This document shows, in pieces, positions 16,428 through 62,278 of a DNA stretch of 64,000 bases. A program made the translations under genes and the position numbers. Location of the stretch: assembly GCA_945882915.1 (NCBI GenBank), contig CAMCWV010000006.1, positions 5,076 to 69,075 of the forward strand, written 5' to 3'. Origin of the DNA: Waddlia chondrophila WSU 86-1044 (GTDB lineage: Bacteria > Chlamydiota > Chlamydiia > Chlamydiales > CAMCWV01). The notes beneath the pieces were generated by a model that ran no database searches, had not been told where the DNA came from, and saw only the letters and a program-made list of their open reading frames with translations. The first letter of the stretch is position 1, and the number at the start of each line of letters is the position of its first letter.

Positions 16428-18630
16428 AGTCTTTTTAGAGAAAAACCCCTGGATCGTCAGGCATTATCGCGCCTTGTTAAGAAGCCTGAGGCCTAAGCTG
16501 AAAAAAGGTGACAAGGAATTGATACGGCTGGCATTTGAAATGGCGGCAGATGCACATAAAACCATGCGCCGCAAAAGTGGTGAGCCTTATATTCTACACC
16601 CGATTGCCGTAGCCATGATCTGTGTAGAAGAGATTGGCCTTGGCGTAAGAAGTACCATCTGCGCTTTATTACATGATATCGTTGAAGACACCGACATCTC
16701 TTTAGAAGATGTTGAAAGAGAATTTGGCTCTGAAATATCCAAGATAGTTAATGGGTTGACCAAGATATCCAACGTTATGGATACCAATACCAGTCAGCAG
16801 GCAGAGAATTTTAAAAAGATATTACTTACCCTTACCGATGATCCAAGGGTCATTCTGATAAAACTGGCCGACCGCCTGCACAATATGCGTACGCTCGACC
16901 ACATGAAGAGTGAGAAGCAGCTTAAGGTCTCATCTGAAACTGTTTGGGTATATGCACCATTGGCCCACCGTATGGGGTTGTACACTATTAAAACGGAACT
17001 GGAAGACCTTTCCATGAAATATATGGAACCGGACGCTTACAGGGAAATTGCTAAAAAACTGTCAGAAACCACGAGAGAGAGAACCCGCTATATTAATGAA
17101 TTTGCACGCCCTTTAAAAGAAAAATTAGTGGCCGGCAGTTTTAATTTTGAGATCTGTAGCCGGCCAAAAAGCATTCACTCAATCTGGAATAAGATAAAAA
17201 AGAAAGGTGTGGCATTTGAAGAGGTCTATGACCTGTTTGCCATCCGTGTAATACTGGATTCTACTCTCGAAAAAGAAAAAGAAGATTGCTGGAAAGTGTA
17301 TTCCATAATCACTGACGAATACACCCCTTCCCCCAAACGTTTGAGAGATTGGCTCAGCAATCCCAAAAATAACGGATACGAAGCCTTACACACAACCGTA
17401 ATGGGCCCGCAGGGCAAATGGATAGAAGTACAAATACGCACGAAACGGATGAATGAAATCGCAGAGAAAGGATTGGCTGCTCATTACAAATACAAAGAAG
17501 GAAGTAATAATAAAGACCGTTTTGATAAATGGTTCGAGCAGATCCGCGAAGTACTAAGTACGCAGGATACAGATGGGGTTGATTTTTTACAGGATTTTAA
17601 AACCTCATTCCTCGCTGAAGAGATCTATGTATATACCCCCAAAGGTGAAGTAAAAATGCTGCCTACCGGCAGCACCGCTCTGGACTTTGCATTCTCCATT
17701 CACTCGGCTATCGGAACCAAATGCATCGGCGCCAAAGTGCATCATAAACTGGTGCCTATCAGTCATAAACTTCGCAGCGCCGACCAGGTAGAAATCATCA
17801 CCAGTAACAAACAAAAGCCTTCAGAAGGCTGGCTAAGCATAGCGGTTACTGCCAAAGCAAAAAGCGAGATAAAAGAGGCATTGCGCGAAGAGAAAAGAAA
17901 AACAGCCGAAGACGGCAAATATACTCTTCAACGCAAAATAGAAGCCATAGGGGCCTCATACAACCAACACACTATTGAAGAACTGGTTCAGTTTTACAAA
18001 TTGCCCTCACCGCTGGATCTCTATTTTAGGATAGCTACCAAAGCGATTGACCTGAAAGAGTTAAAAGATTTCAAGGTATTGGGTGACAGGATCGAAATTC
18101 CCAAACACAAACCAGTTATTACAGAAATTCCGGTTGATCATACTCACCAGAAAAATGATAACCACAAAGATTCTGAGTTAATTATTTTTGGCGAAAGCAG
18201 CGACAGGATTATGTACTCCCTGGCCAGGTGTTGCAACCCCATTCCCGGGGATGATGTATTTGGTTTTGTAAGCACAGGCAATGGTTTAATCATTCACAGA
18301 ACCGCTTGTCCGAATGCCACGCAATTATTAGCCAATTATGGCCATAGGGTAGTGAAAACGAAATGGGCCAAGAATAAAGAAATATCTTTCCTCACAGGCT
18401 TGAAAATTATGGGATTGGATGATGTGGGCGTAATAAACAAAATTACCAACGTGATCAGCGGCGATCTGCGGATCAATATCGCAGGCTTAACCATCGAATC
18501 AAGGGAAGGCTTATTTGAAGGAACCATCAAAGTGTTTGTACACGATAAGGAAGAACTAGAAGAACTGGTTACCCGGTTAAAATCATTGAACGGAATACAA
18601 ACAGTTGATCGTTTTGACACAGAAAACTAA
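16414..18630 (+). CDS. bifunctional (p)ppGpp synthetase/hydrolase, RelA/SpoT homologue (long RSH)
   Basis: 738 aa. The HD hydrolase domain has GEPYILHPIAVA and LLHDIVEDTD. The synthetase domain has RPKSIHSIWNKIKKKGVAFEEVYDLFAIRVIL and YEALHTTV. TGS (YVYTPKGEV) and C-terminal ACT-like regions are present, so all domains are intact. The sequence style (SIWNK..KK) recalls Bacteroidetes RSH proteins. AT content is visibly higher than in neighbouring genes. Confidence 0.9.
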   Translation: MTRHKVFLEKNPWIVRHYRALLRSLRPKLKKGDKELIRLAFEMAADAHKTMRRKSGEPYILHPIAVAMICVEEIGLGVRSTICALLHDIVEDTDISLEDVEREFGSEISKIVNGLTKISNVMDTNTSQQAENFKKILLTLTDDPRVILIKLADRLHNMRTLDHMKSEKQLKVSSETVWVYAPLAHRMGLYTIKTELEDLSMKYMEPDAYREIAKKLSETTRERTRYINEFARPLKEKLVAGSFNFEICSRPKSIHSIWNKIKKKGVAFEEVYDLFAIRVILDSTLEKEKEDCWKVYSIITDEYTPSPKRLRDWLSNPKNNGYEALHTTVMGPQGKWIEVQIRTKRMNEIAEKGLAAHYKYKEGSNNKDRFDKWFEQIREVLSTQDTDGVDFLQDFKTSFLAEEIYVYTPKGEVKMLPTGSTALDFAFSIHSAIGTKCIGAKVHHKLVPISHKLRSADQVEIITSNKQKPSEGWLSIAVTAKAKSEIKEALREEKRKTAEDGKYTLQRKIEAIGASYNQHTIEELVQFYKLPSPLDLYFRIATKAIDLKELKDFKVLGDRIEIPKHKPVITEIPVDHTHQKNDNHKDSELIIFGESSDRIMYSLARCCNPIPGDDVFGFVSTGNGLIIHRTACPNATQLLANYGHRVVKTKWAKNKEISFLTGLKIMGLDDVGVINKITNVISGDLRINIAGLTIESREGLFEGTIKVFVHDKEELEELVTRLKSLNGIQTVDRFDTEN

Positions 18631-18822
18631 CAATGGTTTGGCGTACGTCCTGTACGTCCTTAAAAAGTTATGGCAACACCTTGGCATGAGGGCCAATCAT
18701 GTCGTGGCGGTTTGGTAACGTTTCCGAATGAGCTGCGCCAAGTCGGGAGGCTTCCCTTCAAACCAGTGTAACGGGAACTCCCAGAAGTTAAGTCTCAATC
18801 TAAAACATGTCTCCCAGATTGA

Positions 18823-18891
18823 GCAATTCGCGTTGAGACTATACTGTCAACAGGTTGGAGCAGGTCCAAGATCTAGGCAATAGATTTTTTT
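18823..18891. mobile_element. solo terminal fragment of an IS (same IS as the mini-element at 59789-60003)
   Basis: CCCAGATTGAGCAATTCGCGTTGAGACTATACTGTCAACAGGTTGGAGCAGGTCCAAGATCTAGGCAATAGATTTTTTT is close to the reverse complement of 59930-60003. Confidence 0.7.
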
Positions 18892-19103
18892 CATCAATTG
18901 ACTGTTCTTTTTTTTTAATGTTAAACCCTCAGACAAAAAATACTGTTTTTCGATTATTTCCCCTCTATCTTCAAATTGTTTTTCATTCATTACTTGACAG
19001 AAGAAACCCTGTTCGCATAAATGACATTTCATGTATTTCAATAGCAAAGCATGCTTAAGCTGTATTTTGATTATTTTTTTTTAACCCCAAGTAAGGAAAC
19101 TAT

Positions 19104-19379
19104 ATGAACAGAGCAGAAATGATTGCGCACCTTGCAAAAGCAACAAAACTTACAAAAGTGGCTTCATCAAACGCATTGGATGCAATGCTTGAAGGAATTA
19201 CAAAGACCTTAAAAAAAGGACAAACTGTTGGTTTCGTTGGTTTTGGTTCATTCGTTGTTAGATCACGTAAAGCACGTACGGGTCGTAACCCACGTACAGG
19301 CGCTGCAATCAAAATTAAAGCAGCAAAGACTGTCGGTTTCCGTGTAGGAAAAGCTCTTAAAGAAACTGTTAACAAGTAG
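19104..19379 (+). CDS. HU/IHF-family DNA-binding protein
   Basis: 91 aa. MNRAEMIAHLAKAT..., GFGSFVVRSRKARTGRNPRTGAAIKIKA is the canonical HU beta-arm. Confidence 0.92.
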   Translation: MNRAEMIAHLAKATKLTKVASSNALDAMLEGITKTLKKGQTVGFVGFGSFVVRSRKARTGRNPRTGAAIKIKAAKTVGFRVGKALKETVNK

Positions 19380-19396
19380 TCTTTCTCCCCTTTCTT

Positions 19397-19441
19397 GGGC
19401 GAGCCTGCGACTCTTATAAGTCCAGTCTCGCCCTTTTTTTT
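19397..19441 (+). terminator. rho-independent terminator after the HU gene
   Basis: The GGGCGAG...CTCGCCC stem is followed by T8. Confidence 0.6.
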
Positions 19442-19715
19442 GCCCCCATCTAAAAACAAAAGAGCTTGGGCTCTTAACTACTTTTGCAACGGTTTTTGAA
19501 GAACGAAAGCTGCAAATGATGGGCCCGGCATTGTTGTGTAATTGCAATTGCAGTCCTACAGACAGCTACTCTTAGAAGGTATAATTATGCAACAATGCCG
19601 ATGGCCCTGGAATTTTCGAACCAAGCACGAGCTTTTTGTGGACATTATGAACGAAATGGAGACAATGAGCTAATTAGACATTTTTGATGAGAAACGGATG
19701 TTAAGATCGCTTTAG

Positions 19716-20788
19716 ATGATATGGGACAAACCCCTTCATGCAGCCTTCCCTGACCTTCTAGAAAGAGCGGGGACCTTCTACTGCTGCTTTCGTGAGGGGG
19801 ATAACCATGCGGGAGGGCAAGAAGGGACGGTTCGTCTTCTTAAAAGCTCTGATGCCGTCCAATGGAAGCCCGCCGCTCACCTGTCACTTTCTGGTGTAGA
19901 CCTTCGCGACCCTCCCCTATCGATTACTCCCGACGGGCGCTTCATGCTCATTATGGGGGGATCTATCTATGAAAAGGGTGTATTCAAGACTTGCTTTCCT
20001 CGTCTAACCTTCTCTAAAGACGGAAAGCGCTGGGATCCGATTACATCGCTTACAACGCTCCCCTACGAGTGGATCTGGGCTGTAGAGTGGTTCGATGGTA
20101 TAGCCTACGGCCTTTCTTATCGCACCGATCAGACCCCCTGGCTTTTAACACTCTTTAGCTCCCGTGATGGAGTTCACTTTTCTCCCCTCCACAAGTTCCG
20201 CTTAAGAAAAAATCCAAGCGAAGGGCGCCTTCGCTTTCAAAAAGACGGGACAATGATTGCCCTGCTCCGAGAGCGTGGCTCCGGGAAAATAGGAGTCGCT
20301 GCTCCCCCTTACAAAAAATGGAAGTGGCACTCCTTAAAAGGGCACCTTGGGGGCTCTAATTTTGTCATGGAAGATGACGCCTGTATGTGGGCCGCTGCGA
20401 GGCGCCTTCGAGAGGGTCAAAAGAAGAACAAGAAAGAAATAGAGGCTTATGTCAGTTTAGCAAAAATGACCAAAACCAGCTTTAAAGAGGTGTGTGAAGT
20501 TCCCTCTGGCGGCGATTGCGGCTACCCAGGCCTTGTCATACAGGAAAAACCCTCTACATGGCCTACTATACTCCTCGTAGTTGAAAATGGGAATTTGGAC
20601 TAGTGCGAAAGCTCCCGCGGCTGAACGATCGCAAGTGCCTTAGTATTAGAAATACAAAGGGCACTTGCAATCGTTCAGCCCCGGGGCTTTGGCGCCGTCC
20701 AAGTTCCAATTTTCAGCTACGAGGAGTATACTCCTCTCACGAAAAGAAGAGCAAAATCTACCTCGCCACCTTCCAACTGCCAAACTAG
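19716..20788 (+). pseudogene. BNR/sialidase-like beta-propeller gene whose 3' end is interrupted by a family-A element
   Basis: ORF 19716-20603 (FYCCFREGDNHAGG..., SSDAVQWKP, SKDGKRWDP, SRDGVHFSP: Asp-box-like repeats) runs into the repeat and ends in the repeat-encoded LLVVENGNLD*. An orphan 18-codon remnant, SSHEKKSKIYLATFQLPN*, lies at 20732-20788. In-frame stops also occur just upstream (19668, 19713), so the 5' end may be damaged too. Confidence 0.6.
20567..20730. repeat. family-A element (~165-bp form with inner GAACGATCGCAAGTGCC palindrome), inserted in a CDS
   Basis: TATACTCCTCGTAGTTGAAAATGGGAATTTGGACTAGTGCGAAAGCTCCCGCGGCTGAACGATCGCAAGTGCCTTAGTATTAGAAATACAAAGGGCACTTGCAATCGTTCAGCCCCGGGGCTTTGGCGCCGTCCAAGTTCCAATTTTCAGCTACGAGGAGTATA. 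Confidence 0.92.
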
Positions 20789-20821
20789 TCCTCGAATAAG
20801 CCAATTGCACTAGTACAGTGT

Positions 20822-20957
20822 AATGTAACCAGACCGTCCCGGTCTGGGATTTAAACTTGGCGCCCTGCAAACGTCTGCTACGGGCACAGTCTGAAATCCC
20901 AGACCGGGACGGTCTGGTTACATTCTGGTTTATTACATTCTGGTTTAAGGTTGACAA
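20822..20957. repeat. family-B compound palindrome, plus 2 x 15-bp tandem repeat at its right end
   Basis: AATGTAACCAGACCGTCCCGGTCTGGGAT...ATCCCAGACCGGGACGGTCTGGTTACATT. Each arm is itself a hairpin (CCAGACCG-TCC-CGGTCTGG). TTACATTCTGGTTTA occurs twice, at 20928-20957. Confidence 0.88.
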
Positions 20958-21060
20958 TTCACATAGCAGAGAAGGAGAAAGGCAGGCAATGCCGTTCGCA
21001 CCTCAATTAGTAATAGATTTGTTACTAATTGGCAAGCGGCAAAGCTAGACCAGCAAAGGT

Positions 21061-22443
21061 TTATTTTAAATCAGCAGCGTTGACGTTTTCCATATGGTGC
21101 TTGAAAGCAGAAAGATAAGCGCACCCATACATCCCATCAATGACACGGTGGTCAAAAGTGAGCGTGACATGCATGATCTGACGGATTCCAAAGGAATCGT
21201 CATCAAGAGCCACAACTTTCTTCTGAATGGCCCCAATCCCGACAATTGCCACCTCAGGAAAGCGAATAATTGGAATGCCAATTAACGTCCCTGACATTCC
21301 AAAGTTTGTCATGCTAATCGTCCCATCCATCACATCTTCACGGCAAAGCTTGCCGGATCTAGCCCTCGCAGCGATATCGGCAACTGCCTTAGAGATCGCA
21401 AGGAGATCAAGATCCTGACACTGTTTAATCACAGGAACCATAATCCCCTTCTCGACACTAACAGCAATCCCAATATTGATATCTCTCTTCATGAGGATTG
21501 TGTCCCCATCAAGAGAAGAGTTGATCATCGGACACTGCCGAATAGCTTGAGCTATTGCCTGAATAACAAAACTCGTGATCGTGATCTTAACGCCGTTCTT
21601 CTGAAGGAAATTGTCCTTTTCTTTTTGGATGAACTTAACAACAGCCGTTACATCTACCTCACCAATAAGCGAAGCGTGCGGCGCCTCATAAAATGAACGA
21701 ACCATATTGTCGGCAATGGCTTTACGCATTACAGTCATCGGCACACGTTCTACTTTGGCGTGTGAGAAGTCAGCACTTTTTACTTCAACACTCTTTACCC
21801 CAACACTTTTGGCTTTTATCGACTCTCTAATTGAAGTTGCCATTGCACAGGTGCTCAAAGAGCCCTCTGTTTCAAACTTTTTCTGGGTTTCAAACTTTTT
21901 CTGGGTTTCAAACTTTTTCTGGGTTTCAAGCTTTTTCTGGTGCAGCTCTATTTCGATGGCCATCTTATGAGGGCACTTACGGGCTTGTATGTAATCCTCA
22001 AAATCTTTCTTCCTGACTCTGCCCCCTTCGCCTGTCCCCTTAAGTTTATCCAACTCTTGCAAAGAGACCCCTTCAGCCGAAGCCAGTCTCATTAAACCTG
22101 GCGATAGAAATCCCCGCTTAGAGTCATCACTTGATAACGCTTTCTGAGAAGCTTCTGGTTTAACAGCAGGCTCTTGAGATGCAGAAGCCTCGCCATCAAC
22201 AGAGCCCTCAATAATTGCAAGCAGCGCCCCAACATCAACCCTTTTACCTTCTACAGCGAGAATCTCTTTGAGCACACCAGCACTGGGAGAGGGAATTTCG
22301 CTGCTGACCTTATCGGTGTCCACCTCAAGAAGAGACTCGTCTCTTTTGACGTAATCACCTACCTTCTTTAGCCACTTGCTAACCGTAGCCTCAGTGATAC
22401 TTTCCCCTAACTTTGGTAGAACAATTTCAATGCGGTTGCTCAT
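21061..22443 (-). CDS. 2-oxo-acid dehydrogenase E2 component (dihydrolipoamide acyltransferase)
   Basis: 460 aa. It has a lipoyl domain (LLEVDTDKVSSEIPSP), an E3/E1-binding domain (LSPGLMRLASAEGVSL...GTGEGGRVRKKD) and the catalytic motif LTFDHRVIDG. Confidence 0.92.
   Translation of the reverse strand: MSNRIEIVLPKLGESITEATVSKWLKKVGDYVKRDESLLEVDTDKVSSEIPSPSAGVLKEILAVEGKRVDVGALLAIIEGSVDGEASASQEPAVKPEASQKALSSDDSKRGFLSPGLMRLASAEGVSLQELDKLKGTGEGGRVRKKDFEDYIQARKCPHKMAIEIELHQKKLETQKKFETQKKFETQKKFETEGSLSTCAMATSIRESIKAKSVGVKSVEVKSADFSHAKVERVPMTVMRKAIADNMVRSFYEAPHASLIGEVDVTAVVKFIQKEKDNFLQKNGVKITITSFVIQAIAQAIRQCPMINSSLDGDTILMKRDINIGIAVSVEKGIMVPVIKQCQDLDLLAISKAVADIAARARSGKLCREDVMDGTISMTNFGMSGTLIGIPIIRFPEVAIVGIGAIQKKVVALDDDSFGIRQIMHVTLTFDHRVIDGMYGCAYLSAFKHHMENVNAADLK
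21869..21940. repeat. 4 x 18-bp in-frame tandem repeat inside the E2 linker
   Basis: GTTTCAAACTTTTTCTGG occurs 3 times, plus GTTTCAAGCTTTTTCTGG once. On the coding strand this encodes (ETQKKF)x4. Confidence 0.95.
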
Positions 22444-23726: not shown

Positions 23727-24869
23727 TCAGGGGACGGTTTGCTTGATGCGGCGGCAAAGCTCGTGCCACTGCTCTGCTTCTCGAAGAATTTCGATAGAGA
23801 TCGGAACCCACCCAATGCCAAGAGAAACAGTATCTTCATGAGAAAGCTTCACGTAGTCTTTCTCAGTGCATACGAGCTGCTGCGCTCCCTTTTCTCGGCA
23901 TTCTCTACTGAACTGTTCGAGCCGCTGGGACGAAACCCCTTCGTGATCGGCCGTGATAAGCTGCCCCACCACCTCTGCACCAAGAGACTTTAACATCTTT
24001 AGAAATCTAGAAGGCTTTGCCACCCCGCAAAAAACGCCCACCTTCATCCCCTCTAAAGAGCCCATCACATCCCCTTTATAGTCTCTGATTTTACCTGAAG
24101 GCTTAATGCGGGTCCATACAATTGGAGCTGCCGTATAAGCTCGAAGGCTAGCCTCAACAGCTACAGGGTCGGCACAAAGATCGGAGTGATGCAACACGAC
24201 AAGATCTGCACGGCGAAGGGCCGAAGGACTTTCTCTTAAATAGCCACGCGGCAAAAAATATCCTCGTCCAAAAGGATCTTGGGCGTCTACCACCACAATC
24301 TCAACATCTCTAGCCAGCTGTCGGTGTTGCATCCCATCATCAAGCAATAAAAGACGTGCGCCATGATTAATAGCCACTTCAGCTGAAGCTCTCCGGTCCC
24401 GTCCTGCAACGACAATAGCTGTCGGCAGGTTCCTGGCCAAAAGACAAGCTTCATCTCCACAAAGCGCCGGGGAAAACTGCGGACTACTCCCATGAAAATT
24501 TTGTCCTGGAGCTTGAACGTGGCTTTGCCCATGACTTACGACTGTGGGGATGGTTCTTTTTTCTGCCTGAGAACGGTAGCCTCTTGAAAGGATTCCCAAA
24601 GAAACCTCACCAAGAAGATCCTGCGCTAATTGAAGGACTACGGGTGTTTTTCCCGTTCCGCCAGCAACAATATTGCCAATGCTTACGACGGGAACTTTTG
24701 AGCGGAATTGTGAAAGCCATCCTGAGTCATAGGCTGTTTTGCGAATATCAGAGGCAAGACGAAATGCCCAGCTTGGAGGGGAAAGCGCCGCTTTAACACA
24801 CGTAGCCAGGGCCCCTTGCCGCTTACCATCGATAATCTCTGTGACAAATGTTTCAAAACGTCTTAACAT
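23727..24869 (-). CDS. lpxK: tetraacyldisaccharide 4'-kinase
   Basis: 380 aa with the GNIVAGGTGKTP P-loop and RGY motifs. The ATG abuts or overlaps the family-A terminus. Confidence 0.88.
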   Translation of the reverse strand: MLRRFETFVTEIIDGKRQGALATCVKAALSPPSWAFRLASDIRKTAYDSGWLSQFRSKVPVVSIGNIVAGGTGKTPVVLQLAQDLLGEVSLGILSRGYRSQAEKRTIPTVVSHGQSHVQAPGQNFHGSSPQFSPALCGDEACLLARNLPTAIVVAGRDRRASAEVAINHGARLLLLDDGMQHRQLARDVEIVVVDAQDPFGRGYFLPRGYLRESPSALRRADLVVLHHSDLCADPVAVEASLRAYTAAPIVWTRIKPSGKIRDYKGDVMGSLEGMKVGVFCGVAKPSRFLKMLKSLGAEVVGQLITADHEGVSSQRLEQFSRECREKGAQQLVCTEKDYVKLSHEDTVSLGIGWVPISIEILREAEQWHELCRRIKQTVP

Positions 24870-24939
24870 ATACTCCTCTTAGCTGAAAACGGGAATTTGG
24901 ACGGCGTGAAAGCTCCCGTTTTCAGCTAAGAGGAGTATA
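24869..24939. repeat. family-A element (71-bp minimal form), fills the gmhA-lpxK junction
   Basis: TATACTCCTCTTAGCTGAAAACGGGA (24869-24894) pairs perfectly over 26 bp with TCCCGTTTTCAGCTAAGAGGAGTATA (24914-24939). The loop is 19 nt. Confidence 0.93.
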
Positions 24940-25564
24940 CAACTCTTGCTAAAACATGTTCACCTGAGCTAGCAACTGAATCTGTAGCTCCAAAAAGATG
25001 GATCTCAACCATTTCTATAATGATATGAATAGCGCTCATATGCACTTCTTGCACGCGATCTGAAGTCTTAAATCCTCGAATCAAAAGCTCTAGATGAGCG
25101 GTCCCCTTAAGCACACCCCCTTCTTTTCCAAGAAAGGCGATCGTTTTTAGCCCTAATCCCTTAGCAACCTTAAAAGCTTGTACGATGTTAGGAGAGTTGC
25201 CGCTCGTTGTCAGACCAATAAAAACATCTTCAGGCTTCCCATACGCCTCGACTCCCCGGGCAAAAACCCAATCAAAACCAAAGTCATTAGCCGTACAAGT
25301 CAGATGCCCCGCTTCAGTGAGCGCAATAGCAGGCAAAGCGCGCCGCTTTCCACGAAACTGCCCTGTCAACTCTTCTGCAAAGTGAGCCGCATCACACAAG
25401 CTCCCGCCATTACCCGCAATGATGAGCTTGCCTCCTTGCTGAAAGCATGCAGCAATCATCTCAGCTGCCTGCGTAATAAACTCCAAAGACGAAGGGAGTT
25501 CAAGCTGTTGCATTGCCTGAATACTTTCCTTTACCGACGCAAGAATTCTGCTCTGTATCATCAT
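24926..25564 (-). CDS. gmhA: phosphoheptose isomerase (SIS domain)
   Basis: 212 aa with GGKLIIAGNGGSLCDAAHFAEEL and TTSGNSPNI. The last codons (..VYSS*) and the TAG stop are encoded by the family-A terminus. Confidence 0.88.
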   Translation of the reverse strand: MMIQSRILASVKESIQAMQQLELPSSLEFITQAAEMIAACFQQGGKLIIAGNGGSLCDAAHFAEELTGQFRGKRRALPAIALTEAGHLTCTANDFGFDWVFARGVEAYGKPEDVFIGLTTSGNSPNIVQAFKVAKGLGLKTIAFLGKEGGVLKGTAHLELLIRGFKTSDRVQEVHMSAIHIIIEMVEIHLFGATDSVASSGEHVLARVVYSS

Positions 25565-26634: not shown

Positions 26635-26781
26635 TATACTCTTTATAGCTGAAAATGGGAAAAATTATCCTAAACAAGCGTTTGCCCTTTCTAGAAGGCA
26701 ACCCTTTAATTGCTATGGGCTTCTTCTCTTTTTTTCTTTTGTGCGCCGTCCAAATTCCAGTTTTCTGCTAAGCGGAGTATA
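26635..26781. repeat. family-A element (~145-bp variant)
   Basis: TATACTCTTTATAGCTGAAAATGGGAAAAATTATCCTAAACAAGCGTTTGCCCTTTCTAGAAGGCAACCC...GCGCCGTCCAAATTCCAGTTTTCTGCTAAGCGGAGTATA. Confidence 0.9.
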
Positions 26782-38026: not shown

Positions 38027-38191
38027 TATACTCCGCTTAGCTGAAAACGGGAATTTGGGCTAGCGCAAAAGCTCCCGCGGCCGAACGATCGCAAGTGCCT
38101 TAGTAGTAGAAATACAAAGGGCACTTGCGATCGTTCAGCCCTGGGGCTTTGGCGCTAGCCCAAATTCCCATTTTCAGCTAAGCGGAGTATA
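38027..38191. repeat. family-A element (~165-bp form)
   Basis: TATACTCCGCTTAGCTGAAAACGGGAATTTGGGCTAGCGCAAAAGCTCCCGCGGCCGAACGATCGCAAGTGCCTTAGTAGTAGAAATACAAAGGGCACTTGCGATCGTTCAGCC...CCCAAATTCCCATTTTCAGCTAAGCGGAGTATA. Confidence 0.92.
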
Positions 38192-44051: not shown

Positions 44052-44130
44052 AGCTACATATTTTAACGCAAAGGAGCAAAAGGCGCGAAGGCGCAAAGAA
44101 TAAAGATAAAAAAACAGGACGCAAAAAAGT

Positions 44131-44280
44131 TAAATAAGTGTTTGACATCTCCAAAATGTAACCAGACCGTCCCGGTCTGGGATCTAAGCTTACTGCCAAG
44201 CAAACGCTTGCTTCGGCTTAATCTGAAATCCCAGACCGGGACGGTCTGGTTACATTTTAGAGATGTCAAACACTTATTTA
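44131..44280. repeat. family-B compound palindrome with extended outer arms
   Basis: TAAATAAGTGTTTGACATCTCCAAAATGTAACCAGACCGTCCCGGTCTGGGAT...AGCAAACGCTTGCT...ATCCCAGACCGGGACGGTCTGGTTACATTTTAGAGATGTCAAACACTTATTTA. Confidence 0.88.
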
Positions 44281-44316
44281 ATTTGTTTTTATTCTGTGTT
44301 CTCCTGGGGTGAAAGC

Positions 44317-52199: not shown

Positions 52200-52202
52200 C
52201 AA

Positions 52203-52476
52203 TACTCCTCGTAGCTGAAAACGGGAATTTGGACGGTGCCAAAGCCCCCGCAGCCTTAGCGTTTGCGGTCTCCAGAAGGTAACGTGGGCCGTCTAAGGTC
52301 TGGGATTTCAGGCCGAAGCCTACAGCAAACGTTTGCTTGGTGGCAGGTTAGATCCCAGACCTTAGACAGCCCACGTTACCTTCTGGAGACGGCAACTCTT
52401 TAATCGCTACGGGCTTCTTCTCTTTTTTTTCTTTTGTGCGCCGTCCAAGTTCCCGTTTTTAGCTAAGAGGAGTATA
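52203..52476. repeat. family-A composite element carrying a nested family-B copy
   Basis: TACTCCTCGTAGCTGAAAACGGGAATTTGGACGGTGCCAAAGCC...[B]...CTTTAATCGCTACGGGCTTCTTCTCTTTTTTTTCTTTTGTGCGCCGTCCAAGTTCCCGTTTTTAGCTAAGAGGAGTATA. Confidence 0.88.
52272..52386. repeat. family-B compound palindrome (variant arms), nested in A
   Basis: CCAGAAGGTAACGTGGGCCGTCTAAGGTCTGGGAT...AGCAAACGTTTGCT...ATCCCAGACCTTAGACAGCCCACGTTACCTTCTGG. Confidence 0.85.
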
Positions 52477-58504: not shown

Positions 58505-58800
58505 ATATACTCCTCGTAGCTGAAAACGGGAATTTGGGCTAGCGCGAAAGCTCCCGCGGCTGAACGATCGTAAGAGCCTTAGTATTAGAAATACAAAGGG
58601 CACTTGCGATCGTTCAGCCCCGGGGTTTTGGCGCCGCCCAAGTCCCCATTTTCAACTACGAGGAGTATATACTCCGCTTAGCTGAAAACGGGAATTTGGG
58701 CTAGCGCGAAAGCTCCCGCGGCTGAACGATCGTAAGAGCCTTAGTATTAGAAATACAAAGGGCACTTGCGATCGTTCAGCCCCGGGGTTTTGGCGCCGTC
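58505..58800. repeat. two tandem family-A ~165-bp copies (second lacks its right terminus)
   Basis: Copy 1 is at 58505-58669 and copy 2 at 58668-58800. Both carry private variants (GAACGATCGTAAGAGCC, GGGGTTTTGG) not seen in other copies. Confidence 0.9.
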
Positions 58801-58884
58801 GATAGGATGAAAAAGAAAAGGCTTTAATGGTAGCGAAAAGGAGTTAAAAGTAAAAACAGAGCTACAAAGAACAGCTCTGCAAAC

Positions 58885-62206: not shown

Positions 62207-62278
62207 TATACTCCTCGTAGTTGAAAACGGGAGTTTGGGCTAGCGCGAAAGCTCCCGTTTTCAACTACGAGGAGTATA
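62207..62278. repeat. family-A element (minimal ~70-bp form)
   Basis: TATACTCCTCGTAGTTGAAAACGGGAGTTTGGGCTAGCGCGAAAGCTCCCGTTTTCAACTACGAGGAGTATA. Confidence 0.92.

Follow-up and report, generated by a model that had tools for sequence, protein, structure and literature searches.

The window analysed here, a stretch of 64,000 nucleotides, has a gene content that fits an environmental chlamydia, including a 1,176-aa SNF2 helicase, GTP-PEPCK, GlgP and Pkn-type kinases. Its Lon protein is 73-75% identical to those of Parachlamydia, Protochlamydia and other Chlamydiales, and the sequencing runs that hold the region are all lake or freshwater metagenomes. An open reading frame of 295 aa at 19716-20603 reads ...GGDCGYPGLVIQEKPSTWPT and then, as the earlier note had described, enters a repeat and terminates in the repeat-encoded ILLVVENGNLD. 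Beyond the repeat, nucleotides 20732-20788 encode SSHEKKSKIYLATFQLPN followed by a stop. The following features were distinguished at the locus.

19716 to 20566, plus strand: 5′ portion of the pseudogene, which is sialidase-like (six-bladed propeller type); it corresponds to codons 1-284 of an ancestral 303-codon gene and ends in TAC (Y284)
20543 to 20544, plus strand: GG run from which one G has been lost (GGG in sister alleles), shifting the frame to QEKPSTWPT instead of QGKTLYMAYY
20567 to 20568, no strand: left TA, which opens codon Y285 (bases 1 and 2) and is most likely one of the two target copies
20567 to 20576, plus strand: left copy of the 10-bp direct repeat TATACTCCTC, read from the sequence
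20569 to 20728, no strand: MITE, a non-coding 160-bp near-perfect palindrome, recognised by its copies, shared ends and hairpin
20569 to 20600 and 20697 to 20728: terminal inverted repeats that define the family (TACTCCTCGTAGYTGAAAAYGGGAAYTTGGAC)
20727 to 20736, plus strand: right copy of the 10-bp direct repeat TATACTCCTC, read from the sequence
20729 to 20730, no strand: right TA, most likely the second copy of the duplicated target
20731 to 20788, plus strand: 3′ gene remnant, consisting of the C that completes Y285, then SSHEKKSKIYLATFQLPN, then a TAG stop codon (20786-20788)

The open reading frame has 137 homologues, the best of which is about 46% identical. Some have a PF13088 domain or an exo-alpha-sialidase annotation, and no named homologue is chlamydial. 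A Pfam search returned no match for the host protein itself or for the rebuilt protein, and the family profile matched PDB sialidases weakly (5hx0, 2e-5; 2w38 and 3h6j, 1e-3). The 5′ part aligns to positions 34-308 of the family profile. Homologues end in ...LPSGGDTSYPGxVxHxGxLWxSYYSSHEGKxSIYLAxIxLP; Y284 and Y295 are invariant in the family, and Y285, S286, S287, H288, E289 and I294 are conserved at 90% or above. The peptide 3′ of the element matches this ending and raises the score against a profile HMM of 119 homologues, and SSHEKKSKIYLATFQLPN is the true C-terminus of the sialidase-like gene, as the earlier note had proposed. The opposite possibility, that the family normally ends near ...STWPT, is contradicted by these homologue ends. 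At the other end of the gene, the frame upstream of the ATG (19620-19715) reads ...DEKRMLRSL-stop-M across a TAG at 19713-19715. When this TAG is read through, the alignment to the profile grows by 8 positions and its score by 3.6-4.9 bits, and the codon may be a further lesion (a nonsense mutation or N-terminal decay). The pseudogene has no signal peptide, a feature found in most homologues.

The interrupting segment at 20567-20730 consists of TA, a 160-bp palindrome (TACTCCTCGTAG...CTACGAGGAGTA) and TA. The inverted repeats that bound it (TACTCCKCKTAGYTGAAAAYGGG) belong to a single long hairpin into which the whole element folds as ssDNA (-66.6 kcal/mol; shuffled sequences, -19.2 +/- 2.9; z = -16.4), and the 160 bp contain stop codons in all three forward frames. 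The 32-nt element end has 14 matches with up to three mismatches in the 64-kb window against 0 expected, and a looser search recovered 37 termini, which bears out the claim that the segment belongs to a repeated family (family A). About 20 copies lie in the window. They fall into size classes of ~71, 98 and 164 bp, together with 146-bp and 276-bp forms that have a foreign core, and the ends are identical throughout. The 13 complete copies total 1,734 bp, or 2.7% of the 64,000-bp window. The element at 20569-20728 is 89-95% identical to the three other 164-bp copies and is the only one within a gene body, the others being intergenic or touching gene ends. In runs X1, X3, X5 and X6, the similarity of dozens of other copies ends exactly at 20567 and 20730. 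The defining features of bacterial MITEs are small size, TIRs, a terminal TA, target-site duplication and long stem-loops (PMC2229807), and this element is small and non-coding, shares its TIRs with its relatives, and has a terminal TA with a probable target-site duplication and a stable stem-loop. It is a bacterial MITE, a previously known kind of element with nothing mechanistically new.

The family is abundant. In two lake metagenomes, the summed depth of the element arms was ~400-600 times that of the unique flanks (12,780 vs 21.7 in X1; ~16,400-17,100 vs 31 in X3), so that the family probably comprises hundreds of copies per genome if all of these copies are this organism's. Runs X12 and X13 contain diverged copies at low depth and nearly none of the unique flanks, and therefore the family is probably also present in other, related organisms. 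Scans of JGI metagenome contigs, IMG/VR and PLSDB with the element TIRs found no copies, and an Rfam search of the window returned only RNase P and tRNAs. In the spacer between the SIS and LpxK genes, the window has the 71-bp form, without the central 93 bp, and a 95%-identical relative (L090) has a 164-bp copy at that site; this comparison indicates that at least some short forms arise in place. The same 71-bp copy (24869-24939) contributes the end of the SIS-domain gene at 24926-25564 (VYSS and the stop codon) and adjoins the start of LpxK. The SIS protein of L090 ends 12 residues earlier (202 aa vs 212 aa) and has four extra N-terminal residues. Another copy, of 99 bp at 406-504, ends 3 nt before the first of three tandem tRNA genes (508-873), two of which are identical. 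The copies at 13778-13923, 26635-26781 and 52201-52476 have cores related to a second palindromic family (GTAACCAGACCGTCCCGGTCTGGGATTT...). A repeat of this second family lies directly after the pseudogene stop (20820-20925), with more near 1033-1091 and 44111-44300, and its depth in X1 is ~44 times that of unique sequence.

The HMM was used to score the products of different excisions. The N-terminal part alone scored 330.9 bits and the product of a 164-bp excision 349.1 bits. With the window sequence as it stands, a 164-bp deletion joins both frames and a 162-bp deletion does not, and this part of the earlier note held. The join is not a restoration of the gene, however. When one base was restored, the 162-bp excision (the element plus one TA) scored 376.3 bits and aligned without gaps through the end of the profile, whereas excision of 160, 161, 163 or 164 bp with the frameshift mended gave 341-346 bits. 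Read in the -1 frame, the 162-bp product is ...TLYMAYYSSHEKKSKIYLATFQLPN followed by a stop, with the invariant YYSSHE motif rebuilt; TAC TAC TCC TCT CAC, encoding YYSSH, is recovered only with one TA kept. Since the 162-bp excision scores best, the insertion split codon Y285 (TA/C) of GCC TAC TAC TCC TCT CAC. The splitting of a conserved codon upholds the proposal that the element inserted into pre-existing coding sequence and was once mobile.

In this light, it is almost certainly wrong to regard the mobile unit as 164 bp including both TAs, with its removal restoring an original ORF (...STWPT/SSHEKK...). Such a deletion is in frame and gains 18 bits over the truncated protein, but its product (...QEKPSTWPT/SSHEKK...) is without Y284 and Y285, is one residue below the family spacing and scores 27 bits less than the 162-bp solution. 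Moreover, PSTWPT is an out-of-frame reading, as sister alleles encode GKTLYMAYY from the same DNA plus one G. When the G is restored the 164-bp deletion is out of frame, and the GGG alleles thus refute this reading. The apparent restoration is a coincidence, the by-product of a separate 1-nt deletion (GGG to GG): 162 bp, 2 extra bases removed and 1 base already missing make 165, a multiple of three. Judged from the alleles at hand, the only excision that would rebuild the YYSSHE...IYLA end in a gene without the G deletion is that of the element and one TA, 162 bp, and the claim that the frame returns only upon removal of both TAs has to be given up. Placing the missing base in the A5 run at 20545-20549 (QEK/TLYM) was rejected, as the sister alleles locate the loss in the GGG run (QGK); moving it there leaves the 162-bp conclusion unchanged. 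Ribosomal hopping over the hairpin was also considered and rejected: matching codons lie 160 nt apart, and the landing would be in the wrong frame.

Sister alleles date the deletion relative to the insertion. The 90% cluster of the window's protein contains five variants, four of 289 aa and one of 312 aa, all of which share the reading VIQGKTLYMAYY. The four 289-aa variants end ...GYPGLVIQGKTLYMAYYTPRS; they have the element, which adds TPRS and a stop, and do not have the frameshift. Alleles with the element and an intact GGG end ...VIQGKTLYMAYYTPRS (L089, P0271, P0272, P0274 and P0275). L089 (NCBI GCA_947446165.1), one of the loci of the 289-aa variants, is 99.9% identical to window positions 13716-20725. 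The GG run lies 23-24 nt upstream of the insertion, and where the window has CAGGAAAAACC the sister alleles have CAGGGAAAAACC; L088, an allele described below, and L089 both carry one extra G. Because the element-bearing L089 reads CAGGGAAAAACC and the window CAGGAAAAACC, it is the window that lost one G at 20543-20544. A unitig of run X1 (1,711 nt, depth 21.7) covers 19700-20596 with 0 differences, GG included, and the GG is therefore no assembly error; a second unitig spans 20701-20851. The GG type was seen in four contigs and in run X1. It was absent from L088, L089, P0271, P0272, P0274, P0275 and runs X3 and X9, with the qualification that the X3 unitig alignment ends before the G run; X3, from the same study as X1, carries the sister-allele marker 20476 C>A. 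From this distribution the G deletion appears to be private to the window's strain. Since the element occurs in many alleles that have not lost the G, it inserted before the deletion took place. An ENA contig (L001) is identical to the window at the locus, the sole difference being an 18-bp indel in the neighbouring E2 acyltransferase gene; like the X1 unitigs, it independently reproduces the two element junctions. That gene contains an 18-bp tandem repeat (GTTTCAAACTTTTTCTGG, protein repeat KKFETQ) at 21851-21940 whose copy number varies by assembly (460 aa in the window vs 454 aa in L001).

The earlier note had asked for an uninterrupted allele. One allele without the element body was found, but it is out of frame with TATA left behind. 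L088, an ENA scaffold ~99% identical to window positions 18723-21737 with GGG present, is without exactly 160 bp and keeps TATA (...GGCCTAC-TATA-CTCCTCTCACG). Its product, P0273 (312 aa), is out of frame after AYY, and removal of one TA converts it into a full 303-aa protein that scores 375.7 bits vs 345.6 for the unmodified one. L088 contains exactly one copy of the 10-bp sequence TATACTCCTC, which in the window stands on both sides of the 160 bp missing here. This direct repeat exists because the YSS codons of the gene (TA/C TCC TC) mimic the element's own end. We read L088 as a loss of the element with both TAs kept, either as a transposase excision footprint or by slipped-strand deletion between the TATACTCCTC copies, and infer that this allele is derived, not ancestral. 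The phylogeny does not show it as derived, because its substitutions are ancestral or private only, with no derived ones in common with any subset of the filled alleles. Two of the private substitutions also occur in run X13 at low depth. L088 in addition has a 15-nt insertion at 20917 within the second palindromic repeat. No skip of 160-164 bp (an empty allele) was seen on the insertion site in the contigs of 12 runs, and a search of 80 related loci for an uninterrupted orthologue next to RelA found none, these loci being from Chitinophagaceae and having no synteny with the window.

At 20567-20730 alone, a target duplication is indistinguishable from a target plus an element end, as TA is palindromic. 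The earlier note had left this point undecided. TA flanks both sides of essentially all copies, and since only the 162-bp excision with one TA kept rebuilds YYSSHE...IYLA, TA behaves as a target-site duplication; it is most likely one, as in Correia, RUP and other IS630/Tc1-mariner-type MITEs. Where real copies abut each other (three tandem pairs) or a TIR-like stub (one junction), they have a single TA in common (GGAGTA-TA-TACTCC). The flanks of the copies are A/T-biased, with an 'a' at -1 in 13 of 16, and an extra TA is found on 7 of 16 left flanks; the latter would fit a preference for (TA)n targets.

These data largely settle the question in favour of a 2-bp duplication over the other reading, in which the element is 156 bp (CTCC...GGAG) and a 4-bp TATA is duplicated, L088 was never occupied and a +2 (TA) frameshift in the gene pre-dates the insertion. 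That reading accounts well for an L088 that is exactly CTAC-TATA-CTCC and whose substitutions are ancestral or private only, and TATA...TATA does bound every copy. We nevertheless judge it improbable. It requires the unexplained gain of a TA exactly at the future insertion point, within the most conserved motif of the protein, and predicts GGAG-TATA-CTCC in tandem copies, where the three pairs and the stub junction have six bases (TATATA). TA duplication is also the rule for this class of bacterial MITEs (PMC2229807). Two other strain comparisons (L090 and L091) offered no clean filled/empty pair that would separate TA from TATA. In the second of these, window positions 58506-58830 hold two tandem copies, the second truncated at its right end, and L091 (97-98% identical) has one hybrid copy and is 162 bp shorter, which looks like the expected result of unequal recombination between the two tandem copies.

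Taken together, the probable history, in which we have good confidence, is insertion of a MITE at a TA in the sialidase-like gene with duplication of that TA, later private loss of a G, and loss of 160 bp in the L088 lineage. A non-autonomous DNA transposon (160 bp, palindromic, with ~32-nt TIRs) would have entered the second TA of ...GCC TAC TAC TCC TCT CAC... (A-Y-Y-S-S-H) near the 3′ end of the gene, and duplication of the target would have given a net gain of 162 bp, or 54 codons. Because the element carries a stop five codons in (...AYYTPRS), the last 18 residues would have been lost and the gene inactivated. In the window's lineage, one G of the GGG run would later have been lost, with a shift of frame; in the L088 lineage, the 160 bp would have been lost again, leaving TA+TA, either through a transposase or through slippage between the 10-bp repeats that flank the hairpin.

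IS630/Tc1-mariner transposases cleave at the ends of the TIRs and insert their elements at TA, and a duplicated TA in an A/T-rich context is their signature. The element displays this pattern, with insertion at TA, a 2-bp duplication and A/T-rich surroundings, and a DDE transposase of this type, supplied in trans, may have moved it. The 64-kb window contains no transposase with matching ends and no RAYT, TnpA or other Y1/HUH gene; with no partner found, membership in the IS630 lineage is suggested by the TA target alone. The fold of the whole element into one long hairpin would also suit a repeat spread as ssDNA by an HUH/Y1 enzyme (REPIN/RAYT or IS200/IS605-like) or by recombination, with a 162-bp unit and a TA that is adjoined rather than duplicated; the 162-bp net insertion is equally compatible with this mode, and the element arms contain GTAG, the tag of one REP superfamily (PMC3733652). 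We consider spread of this kind very unlikely. The inverted repeats of the element are symmetrical down to the final base, with a TA next to each, whereas IS200/IS605 ends are asymmetric (PMC3733652), and size classes with identical ends are typical of MITEs (PMC2229807). REPs and REPINs are 20-40-bp palindromes tagged GTAG or CGTC and associated with a RAYT gene (PMC3733652), and a 160-bp unit with symmetrical TIRs and TA flanks, in a window that contains no Y1/HUH gene, does not fall in that class.

Copies of the MITE also coincide with differences in gene order. Between assemblies, gene order differs exactly at the copies at 38027-38191, 58506-58830 and 62207-62278: in L082, window positions 38155 and 58647 are joined within a copy and the 20.5 kb between them are absent, and L082 and L084 depart from the window order at 62232 and 62278. 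These breaks are either MITE-mediated strain rearrangements or mis-joins at repeats. Because the family is very abundant and coincides with the breaks, it is probably one of the main causes of poor assembly and rearrangement in these chlamydial genomes.

The surroundings of the pseudogene have features of their own. The RelA/SpoT gene at 16452-18630 is similar over its full length to genes in Chitinophagaceae/Sediminibacterium (Bacteroidota) MAGs (88-91% protein identity; up to 83.6% DNA identity). The similarity ends at the gene borders, no neighbouring gene is shared, and the rest of the window is chlamydial-looking. In two runs, unitigs cross both borders with a depth equal to that of the flanks. 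The pattern suggests a recent transfer of one gene from Bacteroidota to the chlamydia, not a chimeric contig. Between RelA and the pseudogene, an HU-like gene (19104-19379) has a GC3 of 0.25 vs 0.41-0.53 in its neighbours, and the stretch from ~16.4 to 20.8 kb (RelA, HU and the sialidase-like gene) may be a mosaic of acquired genes.

The event itself is an ordinary gene disruption, and its interest lies mainly in the three-allele series and in finding so abundant a family in a chlamydial genome. The gene has been caught in three natural states (filled, filled with a frameshift, and with the element lost and a TATA scar), which provide a small, clean record of a MITE starting pseudogene decay in an intracellular bacterium. 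A search of the literature found no report of a MITE for Chlamydiota. It is conceivable, although we consider it doubtful, that the copies, numbering hundreds and making up ~3% of the DNA, form a hitherto undescribed MITE family of freshwater Chlamydiota that duplicates TA and is still active, and that L088 is a genuine transposase footprint. If so, this would be a Correia-like system in the phylum Chlamydiota, with working cut-and-paste transposition altering both the genes and their order in wild populations of an obligate intracellular lineage.

Nearly precise excision of the Tn10/Tn5 type is a transposase-independent deletion between short direct repeats that is stimulated by long inverted repeats. 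Acting through TATACTCCTC, it would give exactly the L088 allele; for L088 it is one of two possible routes, the other being a transposase excision footprint. Known systems close to the element include the Correia/NEMIS elements of Neisseria, which are non-coding and shorter than 200 bp, with TIRs of ~25-30 nt, a terminal TA attributed to target duplication and a long stem-loop, and which occur in 107-bp and 155-bp size classes at high copy number, mainly in intergenic regions, without an identified cognate transposase (PMC2229807). The chlamydial element is likewise non-coding and below 200 bp, with comparable TIR length, a terminal TA, a stem-loop, high copy number, a mainly intergenic location and no cognate transposase found, and its size classes (71, 98 and 164 bp, against 107 and 155 bp) also differ by an internal segment. 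It differs in its host, a member of the Chlamydiota instead of Neisseria, in that its whole 160 bp form a near-perfect palindrome, and in its TIR sequence, which we take to be unrelated to that of Correia beyond the initial TATA. RUP of Streptococcus pneumoniae is a ~100-bp MITE at TA for which trans-mobilisation by IS630-Spn1 has been proposed (PMC2229807). Both insert at TA, but the partner of RUP was named from a TIR match to IS630-Spn1, whereas the IS630 link of the chlamydial element comes from the TA target alone. MITECca01 of a Cardinium endosymbiont, derived from IS982, 240 bp long, mostly intergenic and rarely within genes, occupies ~3.5% of its genome (PMC9769881). It too is a lineage-specific MITE burst in an intracellular symbiont (~3.5% of the genome vs 2.7% of the window), but is longer, at 240 bp, and has a known parental IS from another family with other target behaviour. 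Finally, the Rickettsia palindromic elements (RPE) are palindromic repeats inside protein-coding genes of an obligate intracellular bacterium (PMC3733652, PMC2229807), as is the copy described here. A net gain of 162 bp is a multiple of 3, and an in-frame, RPE-like addition was considered; it was rejected because the host frame stops after 5 codons (...AYYTPRS), and a further frameshift then followed. RPEs are read through in frame and leave the host protein functional, whereas here the stop truncates the protein and the gene decays further.
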